Made by a program: the position numbers and the translations under genes. Below the pieces are notes generated by a model. The model saw only the letters and a program-made list of their open reading frames with translations, had not been told where the DNA came from and searched no databases. Source: an uncultured Candidatus Saccharibacteria bacterium (lineage in GTDB: Bacteria; Patescibacteriota; Saccharimonadia; Saccharimonadales; Saccharimonadaceae). From it: a stretch of 32,790 nucleotides of DNA. Shown piece by piece: positions 2,261-7,255 of the stretch; the first letter of the stretch is position 1, and each line of letters starts with the position of its first letter. The stretch covers positions 1-32,790 of the forward strand of contig CAJZIB010000001.1 of assembly GCA_916049555.1 (NCBI GenBank), read 5' to 3'.

Positions 2261-3946
2261 CTAGTAGCTGTAGTATTTGTTGTAGTAGTCGCCGCGACGT
2301 TCATCTACGGTACGGTTCAAGACAACACCGGAGACCTTCACGTCAATCGCCTCAAGCGCCTTCTTTGAATTCTGCAAGTCTTCAATCGTAGTGATATTTG
2401 CAGAACAGACAACCACGGTGCGGTCTGTTTTCTTAGCCAGAATCAAAGAGTCTGAAAGTCCGTCAAGTGGCGTGCCGTCAAGGATGACGTAATCGTACTT
2501 TTCTTTCGCCTCGTTCAGCAACTCTTCCATGTCACTGGAGTCTAGTAATTCACTTGGATTTGGTGGCACCACACCACGCGTAATTACACTCAAACTCTTC
2601 ACTGTAGTTTTCTGTACATATTTTTCATATGTCTTAGCCTCATTCTCAGCTAGCAAGTTGGAAAGCCCAGCCTTGTTTGAGAGAGCAAAGATTTCGTGTT
2701 GACGACCAAGACGCATGTCACAGTCGATCAAAAGTACTTTCTTCTGGGTTTTCGCAAAAGCCACGGCGAGGTTTGATGCGATAAAACTTTTACCTTCGTT
2801 TGGCGTCGAGCTGGTAATCAATACAGTATTCGATTTCTTATTATTCAAAGAGAAGTAAAGACTGGTACGAATCGTACGAAAATCCTCACTCACCTTTGAT
2901 TTCGGATTGTCGCGAAGTACAAGCTCGGAATCTTCATCAATCTCGTCGGCCTCAGTCTCGTCAATCTCGGCTTCTTCAGCCTCTTTTTCAGCCGCTAATT
3001 TTTCTTGAAGCGCCTTCTCTTCAGCAATAATCTTTCTACCAACTGCCTTAATCTCCACCACTTTTTTTACTGGAGCTTCTTCAGTTTTTTCTTCCGTCTC
3101 ACTCTCTGCCTCGTCAGATTCTTCCGAGATGGCTTCCTCAGTCTCAAGCTCTAAGGCCTTCTTTGCTTCCTCGCGTGCCAGCTTCTTTGCTAGTTTCATT
3201 TGCTGCTTTTCAAGCTTCATAGCTTGCTTAGCCTCTTTTTTAGCACGTTTTTCAGCTTCTTTTTTGCGTTTTTCCTTTTGCTTTTCAGTCTCTAACTTTC
3301 GCACCTTACCAAAAATTGGTAGCTTAAATAATTGCTCAATCTGTTCAGTAGTTTTAATCGTACGATCAAAATAGAACATCAGGAAGATAATTGCGGTAGC
3401 GAGCATCACGCCAGCAGCAAGATAAATTGCCTCTTGTTTCACCACGTCCACATTATATGGCTTCTGTGGCTCGACTGCGCGGTCCAGCACGTTGACGCTT
3501 TTATCGTTATAAATTAAGCCAATCTCGGAAGTAAATACCTCAGCAATGCTATTTGCAAGCTCAAAAGCATGGTAATGATTGGCATCCACCACGGAAATAC
3601 TAATAATCTCGGTATCTTTGAGGGAAGAAACATTAATCTTTTTCACAAGCTGCTCATAAGAGTCGTCAATCAACATCTCACGCTTCACGCGATCGAGCAC
3701 GCGGTGGGATTTTACTACCTCGGTATAAGTATCAATCAAGTTTTTGTTGGCGTTGATTTCATTTTGCACGGTATTTTTTGATTTATCCGAGCTCAAAATT
3801 ACGGTTGCCTGAGCCTTATATTCAGGTTTCTGCACAAAAATAGTATAAAAAGTACCGCCAGCGACAACGAGTACCACAAAAGTTACAAACAAGATCAAGT
3901 GCTTCTTGAAATAAGCCAAAAGATCTCTCAAATTAATTTCTTCCAT
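2261..3946 (-). CDS. Fused polysaccharide co-polymerase (Wzz/CpsC) and BY tyrosine kinase (CpsD) with a charged linker
   Basis: N-terminal MEEINLRDLL, two TM helices, P.Y.A and VLD.A..P..P motifs. C-terminal Walker A STPNEGKS, A' LLIDCD, B VILDGTP and tyrosine cluster YYNKYYSY. Start moved to ATG 3946, which lies 7 nt after TGnTATAAT. Confidence 0.9.
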   Translation of the reverse strand: MEEINLRDLLAYFKKHLILFVTFVVLVVAGGTFYTIFVQKPEYKAQATVILSSDKSKNTVQNEINANKNLIDTYTEVVKSHRVLDRVKREMLIDDSYEQLVKKINVSSLKDTEIISISVVDANHYHAFELANSIAEVFTSEIGLIYNDKSVNVLDRAVEPQKPYNVDVVKQEAIYLAAGVMLATAIIFLMFYFDRTIKTTEQIEQLFKLPIFGKVRKLETEKQKEKRKKEAEKRAKKEAKQAMKLEKQQMKLAKKLAREEAKKALELETEEAISEESDEAESETEEKTEEAPVKKVVEIKAVGRKIIAEEKALQEKLAAEKEAEEAEIDETEADEIDEDSELVLRDNPKSKVSEDFRTIRTSLYFSLNNKKSNTVLITSSTPNEGKSFIASNLAVAFAKTQKKVLLIDCDMRLGRQHEIFALSNKAGLSNLLAENEAKTYEKYVQKTTVKSLSVITRGVVPPNPSELLDSSDMEELLNEAKEKYDYVILDGTPLDGLSDSLILAKKTDRTVVVCSANITTIEDLQNSKKALEAIDVKVSGVVLNRTVDERRGDYYNKYYSY

Positions 3947-4082: not shown

Positions 4083-4111
4083 TTGCATTTTTTTAATGTT
4101 TCTGCTAAAAT
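4083..4111 (+). promoter_or_regulatory. sigma70-type promoter for the intergenic transcript
   Basis: TTGCAT (4083-4088), 17-nt spacer, extended -10 TGcTAAAAT (TAAAAT at 4106-4111). Confidence 0.7.
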
Positions 4112-4211
4112 CTCAGGTATTGCTCTTTTCCACAAGTCATTCTAGAGTATTTTGACTTACGAGGTGGGTCGGTCGCGAGCAATAGAATTAAACGGAGTAA
4201 GAATTTTACTT

Positions 4212-4292
4212 ATGCGTAGACTTAAACGTGAATCTTCGCGCAAAAAGTCGAAAATTCCTCCTGCCCCATGGCAAGAGTTCATTATTTACTAA
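4212..4292 (+). CDS. Putative 26-aa basic peptide MRRLKRESSRKKSKIPPAPWQEFIIY
   Basis: ATG 4212 to TAA 4292, with GGAG at 4194-4197 separated from the ATG by a small hairpin. Lies in the gap between the two large hairpins. Confidence 0.4.
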   Translation: MRRLKRESSRKKSKIPPAPWQEFIIY

Positions 4293-4370
4293 TCAGAAGG
4301 GTCAAACTTCCTTGAAGATTCAGCCTGAGAGCTAAAAACGCAAATCTTCAAGCACGATTATTAAATAAGG

Positions 4371-4401
4371 AAAATATCACCCCAAAAGGTGATATTTTTT
4401 T
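4371..4401 (+). terminator. Intrinsic terminator
   Basis: aaaatatcacc-ccaaaa-ggtgatatttt followed by a T run. Confidence 0.8.
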
Positions 4402-4405
4402 GATT

Positions 4406-4474
4406 CTATCTTGCTAATCAGTACAATACTATCTTGCCAATCAGTGGAACGCTATATCGCTAATCAGAGCAGCA
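4406..4474. repeat. Three tandem degenerate 23-nt repeats
   Basis: ctatcttgctaatcagtacaata / ctatcttgccaatcagtggaacg / ctatatcgctaatcagagcagca. Confidence 0.8.
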
Positions 4475-4517
4475 CTTTAGGTTTCCCCTATTCTCTAAGA
4501 TGTGGTATTATTTTTTT

Positions 4518-6281
4518 ATGAGAATATTGTCTGGAGAATTGAAAACGAAATTAAATCAAACCGTAACTGTTGCCGGTTGGGTTAATTCCCGCCGTGACCA
4601 TGGTGGCCTCATCTTTATTGATTTACGCGACCATCAGGGAATTATCCAGTTAGTCATCACTCCAGAAAATAATCAGGCCTTCACCCTCGCTGAATCTTTG
4701 CGCGATGAGTTTGTTATCTCCGCAACTGGCCTCATCCGCGAGCGCGCCGCTGATCTTAAAAACCCAAACATCGAGACTGGCGACATTGAACTCGTGGTCG
4801 AAAGCATCGAACTCTTGAATCGCTCCGACACTCCTCCAGTCAATACCCACGACGATGGACCTGAATCCAGCGAGGAGCTTCGCCTCAAATATCGTTATCT
4901 TGATTTGCGTCGTCCAAGCATGCAAAAGACTCTGAAGCGCCGCGCCAAGTTTTATTCCTACCTCAGAAATTACATGGATCAGCACGACTTTATCGAGGTC
5001 ACCACGCCAATTCTTGCGAACTCCAGCCCTGAAGGTGCTCGTGACTTCCTAGTGCCATCCCGTCTGAAACCAGGTCTCTTCTATGCACTTCCTCAAGCTC
5101 CTCAGCAGTTCAAACAGCTCCTCATGGTTGGCGGCCTGCCACGTTATTATCAGATCGCTCCATGTTTCCGTGATGAGGATCCACGTGCTGACCGTCTTTA
5201 TGGTGATTTTTATCAACTAGACTGTGAGATGTCCTTCGTTGATAAGGGTGAAACCGTCAGACAGACTGTCGAGCCACTCATCAAGTCTCTCGTCACCGAC
5301 TTTGCCGGCAAAAAACTTTTCTCTGAAGAAATTCCACGCATTTCATACCAGGAATCAATGGAAAAATATGGCGTCGACAAGCCAGATCTTCGCTATGGTA
5401 TGGAAATGATTGAGCTTACGGAAATCTTGAAAGACACTAGCTTCAAGGTCTTCCAGAGTCCATGTGTCAAAGCTATCTGTGTTGAAAATGGTGCCAGCCT
5501 CACTCGTTCTCAAATCGACCAGTTTACTGAAAAAGCCAGAAAGCTTGGCGCCTCCGGTCTCGCCTACATCATGTATGAAAACGGTACCGAAAAAAGTCCA
5601 ATTGCTAAATTCTTGCAACCTGAAGAACTTGCCAAAATCAAAGAAGCCACTGGCGCTAAAGATGGTGACGCTGTCTTCTTCTGTTCTGATGATCGCGCCA
5701 AGGTGAATAAAATCCTCGGACAACTTCGCATCGCTTTTGCAGATCACTTTAATCTTAAAGACGACTCCATCGTTGCGCTTTGCTGGATTGTCGACTTCCC
5801 ATTCTACGAATGGAATGATGGCGAACATAAGATCGACTTCGGTCACAACCCATTCTCGATGCCAAAAGGCGGTCTCGCCGCTCTTGAAGCTGCAGAAACC
5901 GATGAAGAAAAACTTGCCATCGTCGCTGACCAGTACGACATGGTGATGAATGGCTACGAAATCTGTTCTGGCGCCGTCAGGAATCACAATCCTGAAATCA
6001 TGTACAAAGTCTTCGATATTCTTGGCTATGGTCATGAATATGTCGAGAAGCGCTTTGGTGGCATGCTTAATGCCTTCAAATTTGGTGCACCTCCACACGC
6101 CGGCTGTGCTTTCGGTATCGAGCGTATCTTCATGGTCTTAAACGATACAAAGAACATCCGCGACATTGTAGCCTTCCCAAAGAACGGCTCCGGTATCGAC
6201 CTCATGATGAGTTCTCCATCCTTCGTTGATGAATATCAGCTAAAGGATGCGCATATTCAGATTATTGAAGACGAGGAATAA
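4518..6281 (+). CDS. aspS: Aspartate--tRNA ligase (possibly non-discriminating)
   Basis: GWV..RRDHGGLIFIDLRD OB fold, EGARDFLVPSR, ALPQAPQQFKQLLM, CFRDED.RADR, GAPPHAGCAFGIER. Start moved to ATG 4518, 6 nt after TGgTATTAT. Confidence 0.97.
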   Translation: MRILSGELKTKLNQTVTVAGWVNSRRDHGGLIFIDLRDHQGIIQLVITPENNQAFTLAESLRDEFVISATGLIRERAADLKNPNIETGDIELVVESIELLNRSDTPPVNTHDDGPESSEELRLKYRYLDLRRPSMQKTLKRRAKFYSYLRNYMDQHDFIEVTTPILANSSPEGARDFLVPSRLKPGLFYALPQAPQQFKQLLMVGGLPRYYQIAPCFRDEDPRADRLYGDFYQLDCEMSFVDKGETVRQTVEPLIKSLVTDFAGKKLFSEEIPRISYQESMEKYGVDKPDLRYGMEMIELTEILKDTSFKVFQSPCVKAICVENGASLTRSQIDQFTEKARKLGASGLAYIMYENGTEKSPIAKFLQPEELAKIKEATGAKDGDAVFFCSDDRAKVNKILGQLRIAFADHFNLKDDSIVALCWIVDFPFYEWNDGEHKIDFGHNPFSMPKGGLAALEAAETDEEKLAIVADQYDMVMNGYEICSGAVRNHNPEIMYKVFDILGYGHEYVEKRFGGMLNAFKFGAPPHAGCAFGIERIFMVLNDTKNIRDIVAFPKNGSGIDLMMSSPSFVDEYQLKDAHIQIIEDEE

Positions 6282-6448: not shown

Positions 6449-7255
6449 TTAAGCGAAGATCACAATACTAAGCAGCACACAGGCGAGCAAAACTCGGTAG
6501 TAGCCAAAGGCTGGGATCGAATTTTCCTTCTTGAAGAACTTCATCACTACTTTCAAAGCGATTAGGCCAGAGATAAAAGCGACCAAATTAGAAAATAGCA
6601 GCATTTGCCAGTTTGCGGCAATATAGGCGCGACTGGAACTCGAAAGTAATGATTTACCACACACTGCCGTCATAATTGGGAGAGAAGCAAGGAAGGAATA
6701 TTTTGCAGCTGAAGCAGAGTTCATTCCCATCACACGACCAGCAATAATCGTTGATCCAGAACGCGAAACACCTGGAATCAAAGCAAATACCTGTGCAAGG
6801 CCAATCACAAGCGCCCTTTTATGAGGTAATTTATTTTCGTCTGTCTCAGATTTGTGTGGCAAGCGATTTACGAAAATCATCAAAAGCCCCACGGTACCCA
6901 TTGCGATTGCAATCGTGGTCAGAGCGGAGAAGAAGCTATGTTGCTCAATAAATTTTGATAAGACCAGCCCAATCAGACCAGCAGGAATTGAAGTGATCAA
7001 AAGATTCATTGCCATATGTACATCACGTTTCACAAATACCTGTTTTAAAATCTTCAAAATTTCCTTGCGATAGTAAATTAAAAGTGCAAACAAGGTTCCG
7101 AAATTAATCAGCTCCAAAAAGAAATGAAAATCGTCCGCGCGACTCCCGGCGCCTAATAATTTTTGGACAAGTTCCAAATGTCCGGAAGAAGACACTGGAA
7201 TAAACTCGGTCAGACCTTGCGTCAAACCTAAAACAAGTGATTCAATTACATTCAT
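6449..7255 (-). CDS. uppP: Undecaprenyl-diphosphate phosphatase (BacA)
   Basis: LG..QGLTEFIPVSSSGHL and GLAQ..ALIPGVSRSGSTI signature motifs. Confidence 0.97.
   Translation of the reverse strand: MNVIESLVLGLTQGLTEFIPVSSSGHLELVQKLLGAGSRADDFHFFLELINFGTLFALLIYYRKEILKILKQVFVKRDVHMAMNLLITSIPAGLIGLVLSKFIEQHSFFSALTTIAIAMGTVGLLMIFVNRLPHKSETDENKLPHKRALVIGLAQVFALIPGVSRSGSTIIAGRVMGMNSASAAKYSFLASLPIMTAVCGKSLLSSSSRAYIAANWQMLLFSNLVAFISGLIALKVVMKFFKKENSIPAFGYYRVLLACVLLSIVIFA

Follow-up and report, generated by a model that had tools for sequence, protein, structure and literature searches.

A short, conserved open reading frame with a predicted promoter, structured leader and terminator in Candidatus Saccharibacteria

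A stretch of 32,790 nucleotides (nt) from an uncultured Candidatus Saccharibacteria bacterium (assembly GCA_916049555.1, contig CAJZIB010000001.1), referred to below as the window, carries at positions 4083–4401 a short open reading frame (sORF) of 26 codons, flanked by putative regulatory elements and followed by aspS. Saccharibacteria are ultrasmall epibionts with genomes of ~0.6–1 Mb, in which nearly every gene that is kept is expected to matter. An earlier note on this DNA, made from the letters alone, had described the region as an unexplained, self-contained structured transcript. We compared the locus with its counterparts in Ca. Nanosyncoccus, to which the window belongs, and in the rest of the order. 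Judged by these sequence comparisons, the region is a stand-alone gene with its own promoter, structured leader, Shine-Dalgarno (SD) sequence and terminator, and we tentatively favour an RNA-binding role for the small basic protein that it would encode.

RESULTS

A predicted stand-alone gene at positions 4083–4401

The features of the region and its flanking genes are listed in Table 1. All of the elements that had been read from the sequence before (promoter, 67-nt hairpin, GGAG, small hairpin, sORF, 10-bp stem and terminator) are present, and they fall into two groups when related genomes are compared: the promoter, the basal leader helix (P1), the SD, the sORF and the terminator are conserved, whereas the hairpin between SD and ATG and the 10-bp stem are lineage-specific.

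The promoter of the window scores only 8/12 against the consensus, and a generic promoter scan missed it because its −35 hexamer retains only three of the six consensus bases. Compared to shuffled sequences (0/119), the pattern TTGNNN-N(16–18)-TGnTAnnnT is strongly enriched upstream of the sORF in Nanosyncoccus, where it was found, with cTTGCA-N17-TGnTAnnAT as the recurring arrangement, in 95 of 119 regions. The predicted transcript start in this genus lies ~7 nt past the −10 box and leads straight into P1; the resulting RNA would be ~285 nt long in the window and ~200 nt in most relatives. An SD sequence is located 4–16 nt before the ATG in 115 of the 119 Nanosyncoccus relatives, and the median distance from GGAG to ATG in the relatives' leaders is 12 nt. 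At the other end of the unit, 109 of 126 Nanosyncoccus loci have a terminator-like hairpin no more than 130 nt past the stop codon, compared with 2 of 126 shuffles. It begins a median of 12 nt past the stop, and its stem covaries across strains.

The minimum free energy (MFE) of the 285-nt unit is lower than that of shuffled sequences (z = −3.38). Since the reverse strand folds equally well (z = −3.34), folding energy alone is not decisive for the unit as a whole. The comparative evidence is decisive for the predicted promoter, P1, SD, sORF and terminator. These counts, together with the variable flanks of identical-peptide strains described below, agree with the earlier view of a self-contained unit that is not simply the leader of aspS.

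Table 1. Predicted features of the sORF locus and flanking genes in the window
Feature	Position	Strand	Remarks
Wzz/P-loop chain-length-determinant-like gene	2264–3946	−	Upstream flank
Promoter	4083–4111	+	−35 TTGCAT (4083–4088), 17-nt spacer, extended −10 TGcTAAAAT (4103–4111); read from the sequence
Leader stem-loop, 67 nt	4118–4184	+	Predicted 5' end; P1 pairs 4118–4125 with 4177–4184; MFE fold
Leader interior	4164–4168 (GUGGG), 4171–4175 (GGUCG)		Inner helix CCAC/GUGG and a variable hairpin; both motifs invariant
SD sequence GGAG	4194–4197	+	14 nt 5' of the ATG
Small hairpin agtaa/ttact	4196–4210	+	SD–ATG interval; lineage-specific; from the sequence
sORF MRRLKRESSRKKSKIPPAPWQEFIIY	4212–4292	+	26 residues plus stop; ATG at 4212 (not 4213), stop codon 4290–4292
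Hairpin GAAG-GGUCAAA-CUUC	4296–4310	+	4 bp, directly 3' of the stop; window lineage only
10-bp stem	4311–4352	+	Encloses agc-CTGAGA-gct (4322–4333); not conserved; from the fold
Intrinsic terminator	4368–4401	+	14-bp stem and U run; terminator-like on the minus strand too
aspS	4518–6278		Downstream flank
BacA gene	6452–7255	−	

The sORF is conserved as a protein

A DNA-level search gave matches in 12 of 24 genomes from the genus and in none of 16 that belong to other families, and conservation of the locus was highest over the 3' half of the ORF. The frame was intact at all matched loci, with the common translation MRI..KR...RK.SKI[PA]PA.WQEFIEI. A peptide profile search found one intact copy, free of internal stops, in 115 of 121 Ca. 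Nanosyncoccus genomes; among the high-quality genomes of the genus the sORF is intact in 76 of 81. Across 13 aligned codons from the 101 distinct Nanosyncoccus DNA versions, the entropies at the three codon positions were 0.53, 0.28 and 1.18, and most of the variation is synonymous (for example CCT/CCA/CCC/CCG or TTT/TTC). Variation that is concentrated at third positions in a frame that stays intact indicates selection on the peptide. By this measure, purifying selection clearly acts on the encoded protein, which speaks against the earlier suggestion that a new non-coding RNA is the main product.

The predicted peptide has 26 residues in the window, 26–35 in the genus and 29–31 elsewhere in the order. 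It carries a net charge of about +6 over its 26 residues; the N-terminal half is basic, and the C-terminal segment P-A-x-W-Q-x-[FY]-[IL] is conserved. Conservation is strongest over the last 10 residues. The Trp is the sole invariant residue family-wide, and the Gln next to it is present in at least 90% of the sequences. In an AlphaFold2 (AF2) model, only a C-terminal helix was formed (residues 23–28), at a predicted local distance difference test (pLDDT) score of 63, and a second model (pLDDT 76) had no assigned secondary structure. On these models, the peptide alone looks largely unstructured. Such a picture is typical of peptides that fold upon a partner.

The family extends through one order

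A first profile, built from the genus, found nearly nothing beyond it: of 301 order-level genomes, 8 matched, 5 of these marginally, and two of the marginal matches looked like true relatives. When divergent members were used to build the profile, 188 of 401 class-level genomes matched (a set that takes in two unpublished genomes, G057 and G305). Among them are 130 of the 168 genomes of the same family, as well as members of many other families of the order, while 21 further families of that sample gave 0 of 117. In a phylum-wide sample of 401 genomes, a 70-sequence profile gave 20 matches, all within the same order (20 of its 23 genomes); neither of the 2 genomes from the class's other orders matched, nor did any of the 376 from outside the class. 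Finally, a pattern scan over all species in GTDB returned 267 pattern matches and 186 confirmed loci; among the matches listed (80 of the 186 loci), every title reads Saccharibacteria, Nanosyncoccus or Nanosynbacter. Taken from these sequence samples, the family appears close to universal and single-copy in the order of Ca. Nanosyncoccus.

Three subfamilies can be distinguished. Subfamily I is found in other genera of the same family (for example MPIAIKFVSSRRKKIAVDVVPAEWQTYIAQ), subfamily II in other families of the order (for example MPVKIKIIPSRGAKVEVKIRRPRWQQFIKY) and subfamily III in Nanosyncoccus, the window included. In addition to the C-terminal segment, the N-terminal halves are conserved inside each subfamily.

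The leader RNA is a gene-specific element

The leader exceeds the ORF in length. In an alignment of 45 leaders, GUGGG and GGUCG never vary. RNAalifold recovers P1 from this alignment, with compensatory changes in five of its six pairs, and 96.6% of the P1 cells hold standard pairs. The number of double-change cells is 22, compared with 3.7 ± 1.6 in shuffles, none of 500 of which reached 22. When the 3' arm of P1 was slid by 1–3 columns, only 32–46% of the cells paired. A simple P1 helix finder failed to separate true from mismatched partners, and the alignment-based pair count was used. The earlier note had proposed to look among homologues for covariation and for codon conservation in the sORF; covariation is found in P1 and the terminator stem, and the codons of the sORF vary as expected for a conserved peptide.

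Most leaders have a CCCA/UGGG helix within P1, together with a hairpin whose sequence varies, and in minimal leaders P1 simply closes a U/A-rich loop with (G)GUCG(U/A)A at its end. The leaders of other genera in the family follow the same logic with another sequence, GUCUCGCGC ... AAAGGUCGAAGCGCGUGAGGC, and show many compensating variants of P1. Of 138 distinct upstream regions from this family-level clade, 118 have GGUCG at 15–75 nt 5' of the ATG, whereas ~6% would be expected for a 5-mer in 60 nt. In subfamily II, a 5' hairpin is followed by an (A)GACAAAAA tract, the tract being present in 12 of 26 leaders.

The 15-nt leader motif is unique in the window's genome, even with up to two mismatches allowed. 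A covariance model of the leader (R1) found it in 31 of the 61 genus genomes searched, always just 5' of the sORF, and gave only four extra matches, all weak (E 0.03–0.1). Since the motif is unique and the R1 matches stand beside the sORF, the leader is a gene-specific cis element rather than a motif dispersed over a regulon. A looser descriptor, a hairpin plus GGUCG, was too permissive and returned 125 matches in the same genome, mostly inside genes. We conclude that the predicted leader helix and its motif are conserved and exclusive to the sORF gene. The leader is a new conserved RNA motif that could enter RNA family collections.

Two further possibilities for the leader were tried and rejected. 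A CGACC partner for GGUCG was found in the ORF or the 3' untranslated region in 2 of 23 cases. A T-box, mimicry of a tRNA D-arm or T-loop, and a riboswitch had no support from Rfam, and the minimal leaders are merely a hairpin with GUCG.

The remaining hairpins of the unit are of narrower distribution. Counterparts of agtaa/ttact (gtac/gtac, ggc/gcc, agtt/aact) occur in some sublineages, and most Nanosyncoccus leaders are without any. In sister strains with an identical peptide, the 10-bp stem is swapped for unrelated hairpins, and one close relative has an uncompensated change in it. The hairpin directly 3' of the stop codon is kept in all 15 distinct 3' flanks of identical-peptide strains and was not seen in the other Nanosyncoccus loci. 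Its loop, GGUCAAA, resembles the leader motif GGUCG(A/U)A and could be a second binding site.

The family and its leader are undescribed

An exhaustive hidden Markov model search of 1.84 billion representative proteins returned only 52 at E ≤ 0.001. These are 26–87 residues long. The longer ones that we inspected are mostly upstream in-frame extensions through the leader, and a few (P0031, P0037 and P0042) read on beyond the usual stop. All named database copies are labelled 'hypothetical protein'. The window peptide matched no family in Pfam or NCBIfam, and no Pfam family was matched by more than 1 of 70 family members. A PDB sequence search with a broad profile found nothing. A narrow profile aligned 19 residues with the C-terminus of human NOP16 (PDB 8fkp, chain SZ, residues 149–167; E = 0.21), where YPAEWQDFL locally resembles PAEWQEFI of the family, but the match was lost with the broad profile and the resemblance is probably chance, not evidence of kinship. 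Foldseek gave no PDB match for the AF2 model, which is of low information, and the ESM Atlas gave no usable match to the family.

At the RNA level, Rfam gave no match above the gathering thresholds in the whole window. Around the locus, ten matches appeared at E ≤ 10, all far below threshold and none on the leader hairpin, and a search of the loci of 12 relatives found only a tRNA. ARAGORN detected no tRNA or tmRNA. The earlier note had recognised no T-box, tmRNA, SRP, RNase P or 6S signature, and these searches agree with it. Full-text literature searches found no paper on the peptide family or the leader motif, and neither is represented by a model in the collections searched. We conclude that both are undescribed, while their general kind, a small basic protein encoded by an sORF with a structured leader, is known.

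Two ribosomal proteins were considered as possible identities and rejected. The sORF family has no match to the bL36 profile (PF00444), and bL36 is encoded separately in 34 of 41 genomes (27 of 28 of high quality). Likewise, 0 of 70 family members match the Ribosomal_L32p profile (PF01783). A distinct, reduced bL32 gene (~45–55 residues, MGKPKKRTS...) is carried in addition to the sORF by 13 of 16 sister families (loci L213–L216). In Nanosyncoccus, the Pfam bL32 model found nothing credible in 24 genomes (one match was spurious) or in the window's own genome. This agrees with PMC9297842, which reports loss of bL32 and describes Saccharibacteria as usually lacking it.

Genomic neighbourhood

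In 91 of 126 Nanosyncoccus loci, the next gene encodes a membrane-anchored DsbA-like thioredoxin and a CNNM/CBS gene comes next. The DsbA-like gene is convergent with the sORF in 73 of these 91 loci. The same order, sORF (+), DsbA-like (−), CNNM/CBS (+), is found across the order in 14 of 15 subfamily I/II loci (among L151–L172). The genes upstream vary in these two subfamilies and frequently encode transporters (CorA, a Na+/H+ exchanger, an iron permease, a major facilitator superfamily protein). The strain group of the window has lost the arrangement, and only within this group is aspS the immediate neighbour. Strains with an identical peptide have 15 different 3' flanks, of which only some lead to aspS. 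Because the neighbours differ even between such strains, the sORF gene is not an aspS leader.

As had been stated before, aspS has a promoter of its own: an extended −10 element, TGgTATTAT (4503–4511), ends 7 nt before the ATG at 4518, is kept in sister strains and is not followed by an SD, which suggests that the aspS mRNA is leaderless. An in-frame ATG at 4500 overlaps this −10 box.

DISCUSSION

A tentative reading: an RNA-binding peptide with an operator in its own leader

Near-universal retention, a dedicated promoter and a long leader make the predicted gene a strong candidate for a core function. Among the readings considered, we tentatively favour one in which it encodes a trans-acting RNA- or ribosome-binding peptide and the leader holds an autoregulatory operator. 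By analogy to the autoregulation of ribosomal proteins and of the CsrA type, the peptide would act in trans on RNA, either the ribosome or another abundant RNA, and the 5' hairpin, with GGUCG as its invariant part, would serve as an operator at which the peptide, or else a different factor, acts on translation or stability of this mRNA. Autoregulation is favoured because a gene-specific leader motif is a hallmark of feedback by the gene's own product, and RNA binding because the peptide is strongly basic and has only a short helix, resembling small proteins that fold on RNA. Of the three readings offered in the earlier note, a small basic peptide that binds nucleic acids or the ribosome is thus the one that fits best. 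The comparisons show that the gene codes for a conserved protein and stands alone; that this protein binds RNA, controls its own mRNA or associates with ribosomes is inferred.

A narrower version, which we consider unlikely, would make the peptide a ribosomal protein, or one associated with the ribosome, that is specific to Saccharimonadales, and the GGUCG hairpin a new autoregulatory leader that it binds. If true, this would add both a new ribosomal protein and a new class of ribosomal-protein leader, confined to one order of the Candidate Phyla Radiation (CPR). Saccharimonadales are known for reduced ribosomes. Autoregulated leaders are known for S15, L20 and L25, and very small lineage-specific ribosomal proteins include bL36, bTHX, bS22 and bL37. 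Like these systems, the sORF has a peptide that is tiny, very basic, single-copy and near-universal, a strong promoter, and a gene-specific structured 5' leader with an invariant short motif. Unlike them, the family has no sequence or profile similarity to ribosomal proteins and lies outside ribosomal operons, and no mimic of its leader was found in the rRNA of a relative (G696).

Other small RNA-binding regulators offer partial parallels. CsrA and RsmA bind GGA in the loops of 5'-leader hairpins, and the arginine-rich peptide of lambda N binds boxB hairpins. The sORF unit likewise joins a small basic peptide to a leader hairpin whose loop displays a short G-rich motif, and the peptide's arginine- and lysine-rich stretch followed by Trp recalls lambda N-type peptides. 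However, the family is homologous to neither, its motif GGUCG(A/U) differs from both GGA and a GNRA-like loop, CsrA is twice as large as the peptide, and a leader that occurs once per genome implies no regulon. A comparison with ribbon-helix-helix or CsrA-like dimers gave no Pfam family shared by more than 1 of 70 members, and in the AF2 monomer only the C-terminal helix (pLDDT 63–76).

Several observations weigh against an RNA-binding, autoregulated peptide. The family shows no similarity to RNA-binding or ribosomal families in Pfam/NCBIfam or by PDB profile, and at the loci examined its gene was never found in a ribosomal-protein operon; the only conserved neighbour is the convergent DsbA-like gene, followed by the CNNM/CBS gene. 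GGUCG is absent from all 26 subfamily II leaders, although the C-terminal peptide motif persists there, and two Nanosyncoccus loci (L041 and L066) have almost no leader. In the 16S and 23S rRNA of G696, the words GGUCG, GUCGUA and GUCGAA occur singly, at chance level, with no extended match to the leader motif. In addition, MFE folds leave the SD fully unpaired in 58 of the 103 leaders, and its median probability of being unpaired is 0.76. Since the leader fold does not sequester the SD, a mechanism of repression is not evident from the structure.

The peptide may be a missing component of the RNA or translation machinery of Saccharibacteria. Its gene is invisible to most annotation, and many copies fall under the length limits of gene callers. 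The family is an easily synthesised target in the search for lineage-specific parts of the translation and RNA machinery of CPR bacteria.

Alternative readings

A possible but more doubtful explanation keeps the peptide as a trans-acting small protein and gives it a protein partner, such as an envelope or ion-transport protein or RNA polymerase, with the leader serving as a 5' stabiliser of the mRNA or as the target of another regulator. It draws on the DsbA-like/CNNM context, the only one conserved across the order (14/15 subfamily I/II and 91/126 Nanosyncoccus loci), and on the frequent transporters upstream, but convergent orientation means that the gene is not co-transcribed with the DsbA-like gene, and shared gene order is a weak pointer to a functional link when genomes are small and rearrange slowly. 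The hydrophobic and aromatic conserved C-terminal tail could serve as a docking motif, whereas the peptide itself has neither a hydrophobic segment nor a Cys. Similarly, the position of P1, ~7 nt past the −10 box, is classic for a 5' stabiliser, and yet a role in stabilisation leaves the invariant GGUCG of the loop unexplained.

The three other readings place the function in the act of translation or in the RNA, and we consider all of them improbable to differing degrees. In the least improbable, the nascent peptide acts in cis as an arrest peptide or attenuator, such that a ribosome pausing at the C-terminal codons or at the stop masks the terminator and allows read-through. As in trpL, hisL, TnaC and SecM, the ORF is short, conservation peaks over the final 10 residues, among them an invariant Trp, and a terminator stem follows closely (median 12 nt past the stop); in the window, aspS lies downstream. 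Unlike in attenuators, there is usually no co-oriented downstream gene (the next gene is convergent in 73 of the 91 loci with a DsbA-like gene and in 14/15 subfamily I/II loci), strains that share an identical peptide have different genes downstream, the sORF gene moves independently of its neighbours, and the folds show no antiterminator helix competing with the terminator. The N-terminal halves and the full peptide are conserved within each subfamily as well. For aspS in particular, the window peptide lacks the Asp codons that an attenuator would need, and aspS keeps its conserved extended −10 element, placed for a leaderless start at 4518. That the functional product is the RNA itself, a small or dual-function RNA with an incidental or secondary ORF, is very improbable: the structured, covarying leader, longer than the ORF, and the discrete promoter-to-terminator unit would suit such an RNA, but third-position variation in a frame kept intact across the whole order indicates selection on the peptide, only P1 and a 5-nt motif are conserved beyond the ORF, both changing between subfamilies, and no Rfam family matches. 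Least credible of all is the earlier proposal that PPAP makes the sORF a stalling sensor dependent on elongation factor P, like proline leaders of the mgtL type. The window peptide does contain PPAP, and genes for Mg2+ transporters (CorA, CNNM) lie near the gene in relatives; however, of the 101 distinct Nanosyncoccus versions only 67 have a Pro directly before the invariant Pro, the other two subfamilies have a single Pro (VPAEW or RRPxW), and there is no co-oriented downstream target. This poor conservation largely refutes the proposal.

Repeats and terminators beside the gene

Between the sORF terminator and the aspS promoter, positions 4406–4475 hold ~2.7–3 tandem copies of a 23-bp unit (CTATCTTGCTAATCAGTACAACA-like). 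Its copy number ranges from none to ~5 across strains with an identical peptide, and the array could be a variable repeat or a set of protein-binding sites. In subfamily I, the terminator is nearly constant (CACCCCAAGGCACCGGGGUG, loop AAGGCACC) over several genera (L202, L204–L210 and L212). This unusually conserved terminator may be shared with the convergent DsbA-like gene.

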